The notes under the pieces are model-generated. The model did not search any database, was not told the DNA's origin, and was given only the letters and a program-made list of their open reading frames with translations. A program made the translations under genes and the position numbers. Of a stretch of 56,731 bases of DNA, positions 25,877-40,533 are shown piece by piece; position 1 is the first letter of the stretch, and every line of letters begins with the position of its first letter. Source of the stretch: Chitinivibrionales bacterium (GTDB lineage: Bacteria > Fibrobacterota > Chitinivibrionia > Chitinivibrionales > FEN-1185). The stretch is from assembly GCA_049684795.1 (NCBI GenBank), contig JBAVGL010000332.1:1-56731 (forward strand), read 5' to 3'.

Positions 25877-27265
25877 TTAAAGACTCGTGGGCCAGTTGGC
25901 TTCCGTGGTCTCACAACCGCTAACCATGGTCATCGCCGAATTACGCATAAGCTGGGTGTCAAACTCGTGGAAAGCCACAATATAAATCTGATCATCCAGC
26001 AGGGCGGAACCCGTAGCGCCATCGGAGGCGACATCCGATACTTTCAGAATAAAATCCCTCCACATACCGAGCCAGAACAAATCCCAGTTACCAAAGATAA
26101 CCGAAGAAGTGGTGGTCGAAGTGGTGCTCGTTCCAGTAGGGCCGGTTTCATTTGCAGGAATCAACGTGGTCGCCGCGAAGGGATACCCGAGCTGCTCCTC
26201 AAATATTTTATCCGTCATCAGCAAGTTCATCGGAAGGACGGGTTGACCGTTATTTGAGTTTTGACCATTCCATTGCGTGATACGTTCCCGTTTCATTCCC
26301 ATCTTGACGCGGGGGTGCATCAGGAAACCCCATTTTCCACCAGGAGTCGTCATTTCATCCACACACTCCAAGTCGGTAATCATCTGGGAGGCGTTGTCAA
26401 TACGGAAACGGCTTGCGGCCTGAGGAAGCACACCAGAAGTTCCAGCGGAGGAAGGAGTCATTACACTTTTAAACTGATAAATTCCTTTTGGCTGAAAACC
26501 CGAACCTGCGCCACCGATCATCATTTGTTCAATCTTCTTTTTCATCGTATACGTCAAGTCATCCCGTATGATCTTATCAGAAACACCGCGAGACTGATAG
26601 ATCAAACGATTGCTCTGCTTTGTAAACGCCGCTACCTTTTTCGGGCGAAGCGTAATCTCACCGTATTGAACATTTGACGGAGATGGTTTTGCATTTTCCC
26701 CAACCATGTACGCCTGGGTACGGGACGTTTTTGTCGGAACCGGCAAGTCACCCATAAGACCCTTTATCACGTTGACACCAAGGGACATCATAGGCATTGC
26801 CTGCACTACCATATCAACAAACTGATCCGACACTTCATCCGGAATCAAATATCCTCCACCAGCGCCGGTAATGGCATTATTAGCACCTACAGTAGCATCC
26901 CGCAGTTTCATACCAGATATAATCATTTCCTTTTCATAGCCAGCATCTTTCCATGGATTGCCTTCGCCTGCACCAACAAGGCCCTTTGCCATAACATGCT
27001 CACGGTACATAGCGCAACAAACAAGGCCCAAGTCAAATTTCTTTTTCTTGAGCTCTTCCTGGGCACCAGGGATATGACGAGCATCGGCAAGCTTCATCTG
27101 CTCGGTGATTGAATTGATAGTCTTCTTCACACCGTCAAGTTCGGTTTCAAGAGCCTTACGGGCAACATCAGCCTTGTCTCCGCTCTCTTTTACGATGTTC
27201 TGAATAGCGGAGGTTATTTTCCCCTCCCACTCAGTCATCGACTTTTTAAGTGTTTCAAGGTCCAT
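25877..27265 (-). CDS. Major capsid protein, HK97 fold
   Basis: 462 aa with an N-terminal coiled-coil delta-like region. It follows the prohead protease gene after a 2-nt gap. Contains a GPTGTSTTSTTTSS tract. Confidence 0.8.
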   Translation of the reverse strand: MDLETLKKSMTEWEGKITSAIQNIVKESGDKADVARKALETELDGVKKTINSITEQMKLADARHIPGAQEELKKKKFDLGLVCCAMYREHVMAKGLVGAGEGNPWKDAGYEKEMIISGMKLRDATVGANNAITGAGGGYLIPDEVSDQFVDMVVQAMPMMSLGVNVIKGLMGDLPVPTKTSRTQAYMVGENAKPSPSNVQYGEITLRPKKVAAFTKQSNRLIYQSRGVSDKIIRDDLTYTMKKKIEQMMIGGAGSGFQPKGIYQFKSVMTPSSAGTSGVLPQAASRFRIDNASQMITDLECVDEMTTPGGKWGFLMHPRVKMGMKRERITQWNGQNSNNGQPVLPMNLLMTDKIFEEQLGYPFAATTLIPANETGPTGTSTTSTTTSSVIFGNWDLFWLGMWRDFILKVSDVASDGATGSALLDDQIYIVAFHEFDTQLMRNSAMTMVSGCETTEANWPTSL

Positions 27266-27267
27266 AA

Positions 27268-28944
27268 TTAAAATTTCCTTATCTCAAACTTCACGCCCTC
27301 TAATGCTTCCTTATAAAAGTCTTTATTCTTACCGTCTGTTTTCCGAGTGCCGTCGCTGGTGGAGGACTTGGATTTAAACGTATCAAAATCGGACTTTAAA
27401 AGGTCAATTTTTTTATTCACCGCGTCAACATCTTTTGTTACCAGTTCTTCAACTCCCGTCATGTCAACGCTTACCTGTATATGCTGTTGCTTGTTAAACT
27501 TTGCATCCAACCACGCCTTTGCGCCTTCCTTGGTCATCGGAACCGGGGAATCATTATCAGGTTGCGGTTCGGCGTCAAAGGCTTTTCCACGTAATGCCAT
27601 TATCATATTTTTTACATGAGGCATAGCGCACTTGTGGTGATCATCAAGTATAGCTTTTGCATTTTTAGTTATCGCCTCTTCGTCATCATCCGATTTTTTT
27701 GCATCAAAAGCATGCTCGTGTATTTCGTTAAGCATTCCTCGGTGCAATGTTTCCACTCCCGTATAGGCGAGTTCTAGCATAGTACGCGCTGCTATTGATT
27801 TGTTAACTGACATACCGTTCCCCTTTTGTATATACAATTCGGGGAACATGCCCTTCAATTGTTCCTCCGAGTATGATTTATTTTCTGGTGCTTCTTCCCC
27901 GAACTCTTTTAAATGTCGTGCAAGATGTGAGTGCACTCCTGATTTATCGCCCTCCGGCATATCAACACCGCCGCGCCCACCAAGTAGAGCGTTCATGGCG
28001 GCACGCACACCATTATACACAGTGTGGTATCCTTCTTTTTGGTGGTGTGGTAATTTATATGATGACTTAATATCTGGCTTTGTTGCATCATACCAGGCAC
28101 ACATTATCTTAAGATCTTTAGGTTCTGCTTTTGCTCGTTCAGCAGGACCGTCCCATGCTGTTTCTTTCGATGCCTTTGAGTGCTCGGCGTAAGGAATAAC
28201 TGCCTTGTCCTTAATACCAATATCGATTTTAGGAAAAGTAAATACCGTTTGCTTTTTTCCGATGATAAGCTCCGAAAACATATCCACCAAATTTTCTTCC
28301 ATCCATTTAAAGCGTGCGAGAAGATCAAAGTCATCTCTGTCAAATTCAACTGATTTGGTCATAGCATCTACAACAGATTTAACGCTATTGGGATTCATTG
28401 GAATGCCACAAGGGGAAAATTCCAAGTAGTCCCATTTTTTGTATTCGGTTCCTGTTTTTCCTAAACCTATACGTGACCTCTCCGCATTATCTACCGGGGA
28501 ATTAGCCCCGCCCACTGCTGGGAGGAACCCGATTGAGCACGCTGGGAGAAAATTTGAGACAGCGAATTTATACACTAAATCAGAACGTCCCGAAGAATCT
28601 ACTCGACTGTCGAGAAACAGCGCCTCCGCCGGGATTGATTTGCTGACCGTATCAACTCCAATACGTAAAGCAGCGCCAACAGGGAAGTTATCATGCTGGT
28701 GACAAAACATAACCACGGGATTTTTGGGATAGTAAGAATCAAAATTAGCGCCTGCAACTCGCACAATATCACCAGCGCGGTCAGGAGTTTCGTCCGCCGT
28801 CGCCGGGTAATGTATAACTCGCTGCTCATACCCATCTAAGTACTCCTTCCCTATCATATCACACAAAGCCTTGCACTCATCGGGGGTCATAGACGTCTTT
28901 GACGTTTTTGCCGCGTTAACTCTTTTTAACAATGCGGTAGGCAT
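27268..28944 (-). CDS. Prohead serine protease (S78/HK97-type) fused to a scaffold-like C-terminal region
   Basis: N-part KNPVVMFCHQHDNFPVGAA and ACSIGFLP resemble the S78 His and Ser motifs. The middle carries a YKLPHH...LLGGRGG motif. The C-part is K/D/E-rich and helical. Confidence 0.7.
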   Translation of the reverse strand: MPTALLKRVNAAKTSKTSMTPDECKALCDMIGKEYLDGYEQRVIHYPATADETPDRAGDIVRVAGANFDSYYPKNPVVMFCHQHDNFPVGAALRIGVDTVSKSIPAEALFLDSRVDSSGRSDLVYKFAVSNFLPACSIGFLPAVGGANSPVDNAERSRIGLGKTGTEYKKWDYLEFSPCGIPMNPNSVKSVVDAMTKSVEFDRDDFDLLARFKWMEENLVDMFSELIIGKKQTVFTFPKIDIGIKDKAVIPYAEHSKASKETAWDGPAERAKAEPKDLKIMCAWYDATKPDIKSSYKLPHHQKEGYHTVYNGVRAAMNALLGGRGGVDMPEGDKSGVHSHLARHLKEFGEEAPENKSYSEEQLKGMFPELYIQKGNGMSVNKSIAARTMLELAYTGVETLHRGMLNEIHEHAFDAKKSDDDEEAITKNAKAILDDHHKCAMPHVKNMIMALRGKAFDAEPQPDNDSPVPMTKEGAKAWLDAKFNKQQHIQVSVDMTGVEELVTKDVDAVNKKIDLLKSDFDTFKSKSSTSDGTRKTDGKNKDFYKEALEGVKFEIRKF

Positions 28945-28946
28945 GA

Positions 28947-29381
28947 TTATTTTCCTCGCTTTACGTTTAATACTACCATGAGGTCATTTTCGTGCCCCTG
29001 CTCATCTTCCAATATTGATTGAATAAGTTCCATAGTTCCAAACTCACCTAATCCCATAGATTGGGTAACTCGTTCGGTATATCGTTTAATGGCCGTTTGT
29101 TCGGATTGAATATCATACGTCAACATTTGAGTAGAGTCGTGGGAAGTAAGGGTAATATCGGAAACCGCCACCGGAATCCCACCAAGGTAATTGATATGGT
29201 CGGAAATTAAAACAGCGTGATCGTGCTCGTCATCGGCGTGCTTCCTGAGCTCTTCGGCTACATTCAACATCGCCGGACCCGTCAAGCATGCCGCATGCTG
29301 AATATATTGTATCATCGCTTGGTACTCTTTCGCCAAGTCGATGTTAAGCTCATTGATTAGGTCTTGCAGTGTAAAGGACAT
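28947..29381 (-). CDS. Ferritin-like / bacterioferritin-like di-iron protein
   Basis: 144 aa. Aligns by eye along its whole length with bacterioferritin, including AKEYQ, ADDEHDHA, IQSEQTA and EDEQGHEND (the E, ExxH, E, ExxH ligand pattern). Confidence 0.75.
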   Translation of the reverse strand: MSFTLQDLINELNIDLAKEYQAMIQYIQHAACLTGPAMLNVAEELRKHADDEHDHAVLISDHINYLGGIPVAVSDITLTSHDSTQMLTYDIQSEQTAIKRYTERVTQSMGLGEFGTMELIQSILEDEQGHENDLMVVLNVKRGK

Positions 29382-29384
29382 ATA

Positions 29385-29552
29385 TCAACCTACAAAATAA
29401 GGGTTAAGGGAAAAACGCTGCTGTCCCTGGGTGGGACCCATCATACGGTTCTTAGGTAACGGTGGTTCACAAGCGTGGTTCTTCAATGCGTTCTCCGTTT
29501 CATAAACTGCACCACACTTTTCACAAACGAATTTTTTCTTCTTGTTATTCAC
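29385..29552 (-). CDS. Small zinc-finger-like protein
   Basis: 55 aa, not in the ORF track. GTG start preceded by AAAGAGGAAAAA. FVCEKCGAVYETENALKNHAC is a C2H2/C2HC-like pattern. Confidence 0.4.
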   Translation of the reverse strand: MNNKKKKFVCEKCGAVYETENALKNHACEPPLPKNRMMGPTQGQQRFSLNPYFVG

Positions 29553-29581: not shown

Positions 29582-31753
29582 TTAATCTCTCTCCTGTACC
29601 GCAATCGTGGTACATCGACAATTTATTATTTCTTCCGGTTCACCGTCTGGGTCAAGAGGATGCAGCAGACCGGTTTCAGGGAATGGCCCACCTACTTTTA
29701 CTATGTTACCATTTTCCGCCGCATGCGTCTCCCGAACCTTATCATCTTCGGCCGTCAACCATTGGTGCTCTTCTATTCCCTCATTTTTAAAACAATCAAA
29801 ACGAGCATCGCTGGAAATGATGCCGGTTTCAGTGCGCGCAATTGTTCGGGCTTGGTGTTTGCGGATTTCCCCTGAGTCACTAATCGCTTCCTTGATTGCT
29901 TTTGCGTACTGCTGCGGTGTGAAGGAATGGGCGTAGCCGTCTTTGATTGCATCCTCTATTTTATCTCCGTACACTTGCATCGTGGTAGAATTTATTCCAG
30001 CGAGCCCCTCCCGACGCGCTTCCACATATTCATTTATCATTGCATCCGATACACCCCAATTGACAAACGCACCAAGCTCCTCTTTCAACTTCGATGCTTC
30101 AAGATATAGTTGAGACTCTACTTGATTTTTGTAAATCTTTAAAAGCTTTTGGTCTTCTTCCGATTGATCAAATAGGAAGTCTTCTGGGTTGAGTGAGGGT
30201 GTTTTCTTTGCCTTCGTTATCGATTTGATCCAAGCGTCAACCAAATCCTGGCAGTAATTACGTTCATCATTGAACATCCTCACAAGTTTACTGTGAAAGG
30301 TATTTTCCCCAGGATTAAGCACGCGCTCAATATACTCATTAGATATTTTAGTAAGAAGTTCCGAGTTAAACCCACCCTTGATAACTATAAAACTCTTTTG
30401 CGTTCCTTTTGGTGTTGGAGGTTCTGTACTATTACCTGGAGCATTAGGATTTCCACCTACGGGGGCCACAGGCACAGGTTTTTCCTTCAACCAAGGGGCT
30501 ACTGATAAATCTTCCTCCGTTAACGGCACCTCAGTGATACGAAAAGAAATATCAGCAGGCACTCCCATGGTGTACATGATCTGCGCTGACTTGACGGCAA
30601 CGGAATAGTCCTTTTTAAGAATACGAATACCCGAAGTATCGGCCTTCAAATGAATCTCATTGCGTACATCGATATTGTTTATCCAACTTGAATTGATCTG
30701 TTCGAGTATAGCCTCTTCAATAGGTAAATAAGTATCCTCCCATAGCATTTTATGCCCCTCGACCAATGTGGCATAATTAACATCTTCGTATTTACCTATT
30801 CCTATTTTGTTAAGACCAAACACCGCAAGCAACTGATCCTCTACACTCCCCTTCTGTTCCATAAACTCCATATCTTTAGGAGTGTTTGCAATTTTCTGAA
30901 ACTCCGCACCCTTCCCCAATATCGCTACGCGGCGTGCGTTCCCGACACCAGCATACTGCTGATACCATCTGTTCTTAATTTCATCCGCTTGCTGATTTGT
31001 CAATTCTTGATCGCTGGAAAGAACTCCTGCCGGGACAGCATCGTTTTCAAATGTTCTATTATTCCAGATGTCTGCTTTTATATCGTTTATAATGGCCATC
31101 TGCGCGGGCGCATACCTTGACAAACCTTCAAGCCAGTTGTATGGGTTAAATGCATAGACACGTAAAATCTCGTTAGGTGCATAGTGTATAATCAACGGTT
31201 CAGGTCCGGGAATTTCCAATTTCCATCCAATGAATTTTTTATTGTTATCAAACTCAGCCGCTATGAACTCATCGGTATAAGGATAAATGGTTGCAGGAAT
31301 GTCTCCGCGTGAAACATCACACTTAGGGTCTTCCTTCCCTGAATCCATAACGAGAAATACCTGTCCACCTTTCAGGGAACGTCCAAAACCTTCACGACAT
31401 GGAAGAAGATAGTATAATATTATGGCTTCCCAAAACGTCCTCCAGGTCATAAACGGATTTGGGCGTTTTAACAATTGCCATACCGGGTGCTTAGGAATTT
31501 TCTTCTCATCTTCCCCGTAGATTCCGTAGGGCAACCTACAAAGGTTTGTCATTATTGCGCGAGCGCACGAATGCACCGCCCAGTGTAATTGGTAGGGTTT
31601 CTTCTCAATTTCTTTCGATGATAAATTTCCGTAGTTGTTTGATTGATAAAAGAAAGTAGGATCAAGATCTGGAACGTCAAGCGCCTTGGTCTGCATGGGA
31701 ACGCCAAGGTGGTTAAACAACTGAATTTCTTTAGTTGCTATTTGAGTACTCAT
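29582..31753 (-). CDS. Portal protein fused to a MuF / SPP1 gp7-like head morphogenesis domain
   Basis: 723 aa. The N-terminal ~450 aa are portal-like. The C-terminal ARTETGIISSDARF...WLTAEDDKVRETHAAENG...INCRC matches the Phage_Mu_F motif. Confidence 0.8.
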   Translation of the reverse strand: MSTQIATKEIQLFNHLGVPMQTKALDVPDLDPTFFYQSNNYGNLSSKEIEKKPYQLHWAVHSCARAIMTNLCRLPYGIYGEDEKKIPKHPVWQLLKRPNPFMTWRTFWEAIILYYLLPCREGFGRSLKGGQVFLVMDSGKEDPKCDVSRGDIPATIYPYTDEFIAAEFDNNKKFIGWKLEIPGPEPLIIHYAPNEILRVYAFNPYNWLEGLSRYAPAQMAIINDIKADIWNNRTFENDAVPAGVLSSDQELTNQQADEIKNRWYQQYAGVGNARRVAILGKGAEFQKIANTPKDMEFMEQKGSVEDQLLAVFGLNKIGIGKYEDVNYATLVEGHKMLWEDTYLPIEEAILEQINSSWINNIDVRNEIHLKADTSGIRILKKDYSVAVKSAQIMYTMGVPADISFRITEVPLTEEDLSVAPWLKEKPVPVAPVGGNPNAPGNSTEPPTPKGTQKSFIVIKGGFNSELLTKISNEYIERVLNPGENTFHSKLVRMFNDERNYCQDLVDAWIKSITKAKKTPSLNPEDFLFDQSEEDQKLLKIYKNQVESQLYLEASKLKEELGAFVNWGVSDAMINEYVEARREGLAGINSTTMQVYGDKIEDAIKDGYAHSFTPQQYAKAIKEAISDSGEIRKHQARTIARTETGIISSDARFDCFKNEGIEEHQWLTAEDDKVRETHAAENGNIVKVGGPFPETGLLHPLDPDGEPEEIINCRCTTIAVQERD

Positions 31754-31967: not shown

Positions 31968-33434
31968 CTAAAATATCTGTATAATGTTGGCTTTGAACAT
32001 TGCAAACATACAAGCGAGGGCATCAATCTGATCATCGTGAGCACCACCGATACCATTGTCTAATTCGTCAATCAATGAACCATTCCATGGTGCTCGTTTC
32101 ATCCACACGTTACCCGCCTCGAAAACCGGAGTCATTGGATCTGCTTTTGCTTTCTTGTCTCCTGGAAGTTGTAGTGGCTCAACGGTAACTATCCCAGATA
32201 GAACTCCTTTACACGTAGTATATGCATCTTTATATGCACCAAACGCCTCCATTCCAACTTGCACCCTATCCGCTACCGCCGCATTCTGAATTATTGGATC
32301 ACGCTTCGGGGCTTCCCACTGCCCACGAATTACGTCATCGATAATGATAGTAGCAAAATTTACATTAGGAATAGATGATGGTTTAAACGTTACTGAGCCC
32401 TTAATACCTACCGTAAAATCAGGATTGTCTTTTGTAGTTTGTTTTGTTGAAGAAGCAAGGTCCCAAGCGCGTTTCATTTGTAAAGAACAACCAACCGCAG
32501 ACTCAACCTCTTTTATATCATCATAGAAACGAATCTTATCGGTACGAAACATTCCACCTTCATGTAGTTTAGGTTCACATTGCATAAGAGAGGCAGTCCC
32601 ATACGTCCCTAAGAACATCTCATTGTCTTTATACCACTGCTCATTATATTTTGCAGGAAACAAATAACCGGTATCATATTTATCGCTTTTTGCCGGGTAC
32701 TTAACAATACTAAACTGCGGCCATGATTTATCCTGCCTCATCTTTTCCTGTATCCGTCCCGATATATCATCCCTGTGCCAGGGGGTACACAAAACGAATA
32801 CTATACATGCCGCCGCGCGTCTTGACATAATGTTATTTGTAAATGCCGTCCAACCTTTTTCCCTTTCGGTATCGGATTCGGCTTCCTGTCTATTCTTTAC
32901 AAAATCATCTACCACAATCAAGGCACCACGTTTCCCAGTGATAGGGCCATCGATACCGGCAAAGTGAACTTTTCCGAAATATGGTTCACACAATGACCAT
33001 CGGGAGACGTTTCTTTCGTCAAGACCTATTTTAGGATACAATGCATCGTATTCAGTGGAATCTATTAAACGTTGGCCGAATGAGGAAAACTCGGAAACCT
33101 TATCCGCCGTGTGGGATGTCACTATGACTTCCGAGTCCGGGAACTCACCGATAAAATGCGCTGGGAGATAATTAGAGACGATTTCTGATTTTCCATGACC
33201 GAAGCAGACCATACCGAGAATATAACTTGACAAACCAAATTTTAATTTTCTCATTGCTACGTCAATTGCAGTACAGAAAGCGGTAGTATGTGGTCCGACA
33301 AGGAAGGGTTCAACATTACGCTTCTGCCAGCAGTATTGCATAAACGCAATATGCTCGGCGCGGGCCCAACCCTCCATGAGGTCTTCCCGGGTCGTCACCT
33401 TAAGTGCCTCAACTACGTTAGACTGTTTTGTCAC
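31968..33434 (-). CDS. terL: Terminase large subunit
   Basis: Walker A-like FGHGKSE, Walker B ALIVVDDF, and nuclease-domain motifs WDLASS and HDDQIDALA. Confidence 0.85.
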   Translation of the reverse strand: MTKQSNVVEALKVTTREDLMEGWARAEHIAFMQYCWQKRNVEPFLVGPHTTAFCTAIDVAMRKLKFGLSSYILGMVCFGHGKSEIVSNYLPAHFIGEFPDSEVIVTSHTADKVSEFSSFGQRLIDSTEYDALYPKIGLDERNVSRWSLCEPYFGKVHFAGIDGPITGKRGALIVVDDFVKNRQEAESDTEREKGWTAFTNNIMSRRAAACIVFVLCTPWHRDDISGRIQEKMRQDKSWPQFSIVKYPAKSDKYDTGYLFPAKYNEQWYKDNEMFLGTYGTASLMQCEPKLHEGGMFRTDKIRFYDDIKEVESAVGCSLQMKRAWDLASSTKQTTKDNPDFTVGIKGSVTFKPSSIPNVNFATIIIDDVIRGQWEAPKRDPIIQNAAVADRVQVGMEAFGAYKDAYTTCKGVLSGIVTVEPLQLPGDKKAKADPMTPVFEAGNVWMKRAPWNGSLIDELDNGIGGAHDDQIDALACMFAMFKANIIQIF

Positions 33435-40490: not shown

Positions 40491-40527
40491 GGCTATAATT
40501 TCCAGAGCGCAAAAATTTCTTACAACG
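40491..40527 (-). promoter_or_regulatory. Repeated leftward promoter-like cassette, copy P1
   Basis: Minus strand reads CGTTGTAA-17 nt-GAAATTATAGCC. A hairpin CGCGGC-gtcgt-GCCGCG (40462-40478), an RBS and the ATG at 40448 follow. Confidence 0.45.
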
Positions 40528-40533
40528 TTCCAC

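Follow-up and report, generated by a model that had tools for sequence, protein, structure and literature searches.

A ferritin-like di-iron protein encoded between the portal and prohead protease genes of an uncultured tailed phage

Encapsulins hold ferritin-like cargo in an HK97-fold shell, which is their textbook function, and they are thought to be related to phage capsids. In phage T4, the internal proteins IPI-III and Alt carry a capsid-targeting sequence (CTS) as a leader that is cleaved by gp21, and the prohead-core genes 67 and 68 lie between those for portal and protease. Other tailed phages encode members of the ferritin superfamily. The DPS-like genes of Gratiaviridae, Flandersviridae and other gut phages have been proposed to limit iron and oxidative damage (Benler et al. 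2021, PMC8008677), Dps-type genes of Lactobacillus phages, found near DNA-metabolism genes, have been given an oxidative-stress reading (Kyrkou et al. 2019, PMC6669764), and proteomics of phage G particles detected the ferritin-like gp346 (PMC12484599). MuF and portal fusions and the ParB-like DdrB of P1 are known or predicted to be packaged in heads (PMC5512222), and it was recently proposed that procapsids might host cargo enzymes, with the 'procapsid as biochemical reactor' (PMC13669383). Among cellular proteins, the mBfr signature consists of His29, Gly34, a haem-binding Met, the lack of extensions and a 12-mer state (PMC13168243). Here, we describe a ferritin-like gene that lies among the head genes of an uncultured tailed phage of ~57 kb, as we read the stretch of DNA analysed: the whole of contig JBAVGL010000332.1 of GCA_049684795.1, 56,731 nucleotides (nt) in length, referred to below as the window. 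An earlier inspection of its letters (the original prediction) had drawn attention to the gene:

28947..29381, minus strand: ferritin-like di-iron protein of 144 amino acids (aa), 16.2 kDa and isoelectric point (pI) 4.6, identified by Pfam, an AlphaFold2 model and its metal ligands

The product of this gene is a true ferritin-fold protein. Judged from sequence, it belongs to the head-assembly module of its phage family and is not a random passenger there. The best reading, which we put at a probability of about 0.5, is that it would be a procapsid-internal ferroxidase that co-assembles with the protease-scaffold and protects DNA from iron-driven oxidation.

The 144-aa protein matched the Pfam family Ferritin (PF00210) over residues 9-138, with an E-value of 5.3e-22 and 78.7 bits against a cut-off of 24.5 bits. 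In its AlphaFold2 monomer model (pLDDT 92.9), four helices (residues 5-32, 36-65, 83-111 and 114-138) form a bare bundle with a long B-C loop (residues 66-82) that is coil; there is neither an E helix nor a BC helix. Fold comparison by Foldseek, in which the top 50 matches were inspected, gave the top superposition on 9qq4 (TM-score 0.92/0.96, root-mean-square deviation 0.9 Å, 30% identity), followed by 2vzb and 2qqy. These were also the best structures in a phmmer search of the PDB (2qqy, 4e-16; 2vzb, 2e-14; 9qq4, 5e-13), with classical bacterioferritins next at ~1e-6. The ferroxidase ligands E19, E52, H55, E94, E127 and H130 correspond to E18/E51/H54/E94/E127/H130 of E. coli bacterioferritin (Bfr). 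All six were unchanged in the 18 homologues aligned and in 20 more sequences, free or fused, among them every fused form, and Tyr26, which is near the metal site, was likewise invariant in free and fused forms. H29 and G35 were invariant in alignments of the ferritin family, and His53 occupies the column of the haem-binding Met of Bfr and mBfr. Such conservation of the six ligands and the nearby Tyr, whether the protein is free or fused, suggests that the catalytic site has been kept. The protein is thus predicted to be a mini-ferritin-type ferroxidase with an intra-subunit di-iron centre and without the haem-binding Met, although the ferroxidase activity itself is something that we infer. Dps-like binding of DNA is unlikely because the protein is acidic. 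The original prediction of a ferritin-like di-iron protein with an E/ExxH/E/ExxH pattern is borne out by the Pfam match and by the ligand-conservation check that it had proposed. Its alignment with bacterioferritin holds in part: the protein is bacterioferritin-like and its ligands match those of Bfr, but the haem-binding Met and the E helix are missing.

Compared with the described families, the protein has the general features of the ferritin-like superfamily: PF00210 above cut-off, a four-helix bundle, and E/ExxH/E/ExxH within one subunit. It departs from Bfr in having no haem-binding Met (E. coli Met52 is replaced by His53) and no C-terminal E helix, as helix D ends at residue 138 of 144. 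It departs from Dps in that its ligands are intra-subunit, not inter-subunit, and its BC loop is coil with no helix. It lacks the terminal loading peptide of encapsulin cargo, its neighbours are terminase, portal-MuF, protease-scaffold and major capsid protein (MCP), and none of the top 50 Foldseek matches was an EncFtn or IMEF structure. The nearest described protein is mBfr of Methanoperedens (9qq4; Wissink et al. 2026, PMC13168243), which is likewise a bare bundle of ~140 aa with no E or BC helix and with a canonical intra-subunit di-iron site. The window form shares with it the bundle without N- or C-terminal extension, His29, and Gly35 (equivalent to mBfr Gly34). However, the strictly conserved haem-binding Met of mBfr is replaced by His53, and the mBfr interface residues Glu56, Glu60, Arg61 and Glu127 are not kept (V57, D61, H62 and Q128 in the window protein), so that the Arg61-Glu127 pair is absent. 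In addition, the window gene is encoded by a phage within a head operon, and a 12-mer state would be carried over to it from mBfr only by analogy. The best sequence matches among solved structures, the B. anthracis sigB-operon protein 2qqy and the B. fragilis DpsL 'thioferritin' 2vzb, also have Bfr-type ligands in one subunit and a stress-protection context. They differ in that their genes are stand-alone stress genes of cells and that DpsL carries a BC helix and tails in addition, and identity to them is just 32-33%. In the tree, 9qq4 and 2qqy fell outside the phage ferritin family, on long branches. We describe the protein as an mBfr-like, haem-Met-less ferritin-like protein, and refrain from classing it as mBfr (because of His53 at the haem-Met position), Bfr, Dps or DpsL.

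Relatives of the ferritin were collected by an exhaustive HMMER search of 1.84 billion representative proteins, which returned 1378 sequences at E<=1e-3 and 356 at E<=1e-10; homologous proteins are numbered P0002 and so on, and loci on IMG/VR and other metagenome contigs L001 and so on. Among the best 150 relatives, two were long fused proteins. The first, P0108 (630 aa), combines Peptidase_S78 with a Ferritin domain at residues 415-544 that is 43% identical to that of the window, and its N-terminus is 35% identical to the window protease domain (E 3e-54). The second, P0134 (735 aa), has a Ferritin domain at residues 508-636 with 38% identity to the window protein, and an N-terminus with 46% identity to the window protease domain (E 7e-64). 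All ligands are intact in both ferritin domains. P0108 lies at L193 (six contigs), where the gene order is large terminase, portal-MuF, a small open reading frame (ORF), the fused gene (protease, linker, ferritin and a tail of ~85 aa), MCP, and genes for 149 and 280 aa; the gene order at L032, which encodes P0134, is that of L193 with a 161-aa product replacing the 149-aa one. At L193 and L032, the ferritin domain, which is of the same subfamily as the window protein, is embedded in the protease-scaffold polyprotein with which the procapsid is filled, and cannot be produced apart from it. The tails of both fused forms end in a short amphipathic motif (...SVKLFDD... and ...SLKLFDEVKI) that loosely resembles the scaffold ends of the group, ...EALEGVKFEIRKF. 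The ferritin identities (38-43%) are close to those of the protease (35-46%), which is compatible with co-descent. In the tree, the fused pair grouped with P0098 (support 95/89) and the window clade stood apart (100/99), with the backbone unresolved. A fold search of predicted viral structures also found ferritin-fold domains in 'Prohead protease' proteins of 763, 432 and 333 aa, as well as in long 'Dps' proteins of uncultured phages. No paper on a ferritin domain within a prohead protease-scaffold was found in the literature. The linker between protease and ferritin in P0134 (residues ~300-480; L032:5001-7208) contains several CxxC zinc-ribbon motifs (DUF7836, weak).

The window gene itself lies in a minus-strand operon in which the order is large terminase, a 100-aa ORF, portal-MuF, a 55-aa ORF, ferritin, protease-scaffold and MCP. 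Apart from the ferritin and the 100-aa ORF, these are:

31968..33434, minus strand: large terminase subunit, first gene of the head operon (Pfam Terminase_6N/6C; PHROG phrog_38, 4e-59)
29582..31753, minus strand: portal with a C-terminal MuF (SPP1 gp7-like) head-morphogenesis domain (Pfam Phage_portal, 1e-43; Phage_Mu_F, 1e-15)
29385..29552, minus strand: 55-aa basic ORF (pI 9.4) with a CxxC...HxC zinc-finger-like motif (weak zf-C2H2 matches)
27268..28944, minus strand: prohead protease (S78-type, residues ~1-235) fused to scaffold, 558 aa (PHROG matches, His/Ser, homology)
25877..27265, minus strand: HK97-fold MCP, 462 aa (Pfam Phage_capsid, 2e-28; PHROG major head protein)

The intergenic gaps are 29 nt between portal and 55-aa ORF, 3 nt between this ORF and ferritin, and 2 nt between ferritin and protease-scaffold, with the ferritin stop 2 nt ahead of the ATG of the latter gene. 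The original prediction had placed the ferritin between portal and protease-scaffold, 2 nt from the latter; the 2-nt gap stands, but the 55-aa ORF separates the ferritin from the portal. No promoter-like or terminator-like site was found in a scan of the minus strand from portal to protease, in support of co-transcription with the head genes and of the co-expression that the original prediction had put forward; the window's early-gene cassette had a single exact match, at 40493-40528. The 558-aa gene is assigned as a prohead protease-scaffold because of weak PHROG matches to head maturation proteases (phrog_80, phrog_617), the invariance of His82 and Ser137 in 19 homologues, and homology to P0108 and P0134, the first of which passes Peptidase_S78 (21.9 bits, cut-off 21). 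There was no direct Pfam match for the 558-aa protein, and a fold search with the model of its protease domain (pLDDT 77) was not significant, the best match being a herpesvirus protease (E 0.05).

Synteny of the head module with the ferritin, a check suggested in the original prediction, was found at L001-L006, L012-L016 and L026; at L026, the portal-protease interval holds two ORFs, the ferritin and then a 98-aa ORF. Between the window and L005, amino-acid identity was 72% for the ferritin, 73% for MCP, 71% for portal and 76% for the protease domain. Between the window and L026, the ratio of nonsynonymous to synonymous substitution rates (dN/dS) was 0.043 for the ferritin, 0.059 for MCP, 0.046 for portal and 0.072 for the protease domain. 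Divergence of the ferritin has kept pace with that of the head genes, at low dN/dS; the gene is therefore functional, and has passed down together with the head module from the split of the clades onwards. Its presence is stable inside the clade, with head-gene-like constraint and with no promoter or terminator of its own found, and is patchy in distant relatives. A search of 50,697 GenBank phage records gave one weak tblastn match to the ferritin and no DNA match to the head module; this type of ferritin is rare in catalogued phages.

The N-terminus of the ferritin, and the slot in which the gene lies, vary among close relatives. In the 90%-identity clusters of the window ferritin and its two closest forms (P0002 and P0041), five forms were distinguished: the bare 144-aa protein (window, L002/L031 and L030); a protein of 170-179 aa with a 25-34-aa extension (L005 clade); a 176-aa protein that starts MLFPTIVVKGGVG (L026); a 217-aa protein with a 73-aa acidic extension (L001); and a 304-aa protein (P0057/P0066) in which the leader MLFPTIVVKGGPGSGRHPEGG is followed by a weak ParB_N-like domain (E 0.014) and then by the ferritin. 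The L001-type 73-aa extension is translated, since Ile, not Met, stands at the start of the domain in at least one sequence. A leader of the form MLFPTIVVKGG(P/V)G... heads the 176-aa ferritin, the 304-aa ParB_N-like-ferritin fusion and a topoisomerase IB (TopoIB). This TopoIB, a 294-aa protein of the poxvirus/bacterial type (Pfam Topoisom_I, 3e-19; Top1B_N_bact), is encoded between the zinc-finger ORF and the ferritin at L001:4901-5785. The leader of this TopoIB, MLLPTIIDKGGPGSGRHPEG, is found again within that phage's scaffold; the carriers of the gene are relatives of 96-98% identity, and its product is a candidate for a head-packaged topoisomerase. KGGPGSG.H.EG, a string at the head of the TopoIB and the ferritin fusions of the slot, is likewise present where protease and scaffold meet in L001, L002 and L026. 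The leader DNA is syntenic, immediately behind the zinc-finger ORF, so that TopoIB and ferritin may have it in common through ancestry as well as through function. Two short segments of the window correspond to these places:

29376..29392, minus strand: short leaderless junction '...ggttgatatATGtcc...', with ~1.1 kb more in L001, L003 and L017
28204..28245, minus strand: protease-scaffold junction segment FTFPKIDIGIKDK, which continues in relatives as KGGPGSG(R/T)H(P/T)EG

The ~1.1 kb that the window lacks relative to L001 comprises the leader-bearing TopoIB and the 73-aa ferritin extension, and there is a short 'atata' microhomology at the site. The short junction is a real variant, because it was seen in two other samples (L002/L031 and L030) with different nearby single-nucleotide polymorphisms. 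A search for the leader in a set of 5.8 billion proteins returned the query cluster only, and nothing relevant was found in the literature on GGPGSG.

The scaffold part of the neighbouring gene is itself a mosaic. In the window it consists of the junction FPKIDIGIKDK, a YKLPHH...GGRGG middle module, a helical C-terminal part and the end ...EALEGVKFEIRKF. The middle (window 27832-28204) differs from those of L001 (L001:7178-7571), L026 and L002, while the flanks are 95-98% identical: the window and L005 have the YKLPHH...LLGGRGG module, and L001, L002 and L026 an unrelated helical module led by KGGPGSG. In P0148, a K(Y)P...LAGR module similar to that of the window is joined to a ferritin domain. 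On the other side of the ferritin, the 55-aa ORF is kept directly upstream of the slot in L001, L002, L005 and L026. Its TGA stop is one codon before the ferritin ATG; read-through of this TGA into the ferritin, for which the frames agree in the window and L001 but differ in L005, was considered and dropped. A small basic ORF follows portal-MuF throughout the phage group (window 29385-29552, L027:4711-4848, L028:3965-4144, L029:5843-5989, L032:4687-5004 and L193:4770-4988). Several of these ORFs have a common (N/H)RMM motif and an aromatic C-terminal end, with the CxxC...HxC motif in the window's clade, and they possibly encode a small head or DNA-binding protein. The zinc-ribbon region of P0134 recalls the zinc-finger ORF of the window, but similarity between the two was not significant (E 0.06). 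At L027:1729-4692, the portal-MuF is 987 aa long and has a weak intein-splicing match (PF14890).

Further from the window's clade, the nearest relatives of the ferritin have in common an N-terminal helical module and an acidic linker. In another phage group, a ferritin with this module and linker is fused, in P0074, to DUF5661, a module that occurs in at least 171 stretches of IMG/VR; scans of this database with P0074 and P0093 returned the DUF5661 tail alone, or nothing. At L113 (6992-7857), such a ferritin stands among phage structural genes, with a match to a head-tail adaptor (phrog_211, 7e-12), and a DUF5661 gene comes after it. In P0075, a gamma-glutamyl cyclotransferase-like domain (GGACT, 7e-14) is fused to a ferritin domain of the window's family.

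On the best reading, the protein is made together with portal-MuF, the S78 protease-scaffold and the capsid proteins, and most likely co-assembles into the procapsid interior: as a free protein in the window's clade, behind the scaffold-junction leader in some close relatives, and as a domain of the protease-scaffold in two sister lineages. In the procapsid, it would oxidise and sequester Fe(II), using O2 or H2O2, and would so keep Fenton chemistry off the DNA being packaged, and possibly off virion or incoming DNA as well. Beyond the activity, we infer the incorporation of the free form, its oligomeric state and the protective role. The capsid association that the original prediction had suggested is supported, indirectly, by the L032/L193 fusions and by the sharing of the leader in relatives, while the window's own copy offers neither a leader nor a targeting peptide. 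Several observations weigh against this reading. Neither terminus of the window ferritin bears a targeting peptide, and none of its segments recurs in its own scaffold, for which the original prediction had proposed a check; like the copies of L002 and L030 it is leaderless, with almost nothing beyond the Pfam domain. In relatives, the N-terminal extensions are very variable in length (0, 25, 34, 33, 73 and 160 aa). Homology of these free-form extensions to the linkers of the fused forms was rejected, as no alignment beat shuffles, and so was co-variation of a leader-bearing slot gene with a GGPGSG-type scaffold, as leaderless ferritins lie beside GGPGSG scaffolds in L002 and L030. Nor could a folded 12-mer cage exit via the portal. 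The tree does not decide for one origin of the fused and free phage forms, and fits one acquisition or several alike. Cellular homologues of 42-53% identity (Moorella, a Nitrospirae metagenome-assembled genome, soil bacteria) are stand-alone chromosomal genes in non-phage surroundings. The portal-protease interval contains one small basic ORF and no ferritin in L028 and L029, and four small genes (45-206 aa) without Pfam match and no ferritin in L027, and the distant MCP relatives L022 and L025 (28% identity) are without ferritin; a slot that is variable, and ferritin-free in distant relatives, is typical of moron insertion sites. Finally, none of 80 metagenome loci of the nearest relatives with the N-terminal module had head genes of the window's phage group, so that association with the head does not extend to the protein family as a whole.

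Much the same evidence enters into a less probable reading that nevertheless has to be taken seriously, in which the gene is a late-expressed accessory gene (a moron or auxiliary metabolic gene) captured from a bacterium and lodged at a permissive site of the late operon, and the ferroxidase acts in the host cytoplasm and never enters the capsid. It would be abundant during DNA replication and packaging, and would lower free Fe(II) and oxidants in a probably anaerobic host. The stand-alone cellular homologues and the variable slot favour this, as do the leaderless window protein and the occurrence of leaderless forms in three independent contigs with either scaffold type, and there is precedent in the phage DPS-like genes so read by Benler et al. 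2021 (PMC8008677) and Kyrkou et al. 2019 (PMC6669764). It leaves unexplained the protease-scaffold-embedded domain of L032 and L193 and the leader common to the scaffold junction and other, DNA-acting cargo, and it sits poorly with the lack of a promoter or terminator of the ferritin's own in the scan and with the head-gene-like constraint since the split of the window and L005 clades. The fusions could also be taken to mean that the bundle is a structural module, which oligomerises the scaffold or core and so nucleates or sizes the procapsid, with metal merely stabilising the fold and iron chemistry irrelevant. Scaffolds are typically helical oligomers, and the L032/L193 domain stands at the place of the unrelated middle modules in the scaffolds of the window, L001 and L026. 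Ferritin-family bundles do self-assemble, to dimers and 12-mers (PMC13168243). Yet this reading is unlikely, given six ligands and a nearby Tyr that are invariant in all free and fused forms, and the same kind of head module without ferritin in L027-L029. Quite unlikely, too, is an ejected internal protein, monomers or dimers of which would be injected with the genome like T4 internal proteins, and would protect incoming DNA or blunt an iron or reactive-oxygen response of the host in the first minutes of infection. The slot in relatives, beside portal-MuF, does hold the leader-bearing TopoIB and the ParB_N-like fusion, both DNA-acting; for proteins that are linked to MuF or resemble ParB, packaging into the head and delivery are known or predicted (PMC5512222); and a four-helix bundle ~2.5 nm wide could in principle fit a tail channel. 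Against it, a protein of pI 4.6 is unlikely to bind DNA directly, and the cages of the ferritin family are normally too large for ejection.

Should the procapsid-internal ferroxidase be correct, a wider possibility arises, which we regard as doubtful: that phages of the window's family are natural ferritin-loaded HK97 compartments, with an active ferroxidase in every procapsid by way of a scaffold domain, followed by the capsid-binding tail of the scaffold, or of a co-assembling free subunit, and thus a viral counterpart of encapsulin cargo and possibly a relative of its evolutionary source. If this were true, it would be a concrete case of the procapsid-reactor idea (PMC13669383). A bona fide phage family with an intact predicted ferroxidase in its head module, in some members as a free gene and in others within the protease-scaffold, would link phage capsids and encapsulins, would make the procapsid-enzyme hypothesis directly testable by co-expression, and would suggest a new virion route for shielding DNA from iron-driven oxidative damage. 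The candidate modular leader, found on different DNA-acting proteins, is of interest for engineered capsid loading. If, instead, the gene is a cytoplasmic accessory, it would be one more phage oxidative-stress helper, and ordinary.

How does the locus compare with the systems set out at the beginning? With the DPS-like and ferritin-like genes of other phages it shares that it is a ferritin-superfamily gene of a tailed phage. However, the DPS-like genes are Dps-type, whereas that of the window is Bfr/mBfr-type, lies between portal and prohead protease, and is fused to the scaffold in relatives. The resemblance to the T4 internal proteins (IPI-III, Alt) is one of arrangement, with genes in the portal-protease interval, an adjacent protease and, in relatives, a short leader common to unrelated proteins. 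In contrast to T4, the relatives' leader has no sequence relation to the CTS, and the window copy has no leader at all. The encapsulin cargoes Flp, EncFtn and IMEF likewise combine a ferroxidase with an HK97-fold shell, and the L032/L193 arrangement of a ferritin domain followed by a scaffold tail recalls the topology of Flp and its loading peptide. Here, though, terminase, portal and protease show the shell to be a real phage capsid, all four helices of a Bfr-like bundle are present in the ferritin, and the window copy has no terminal peptide; membership of the encapsulin cargo types, with which the original prediction had drawn a parallel, is not supported, as neither an EncFtn or IMEF structure among the top 50 fold matches nor a C-terminal loading peptide was found. 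Phage Dps-like genes, capsid-targeted internal proteins and encapsulin ferritin cargo are already known, and the gene of the window is a variant of these.

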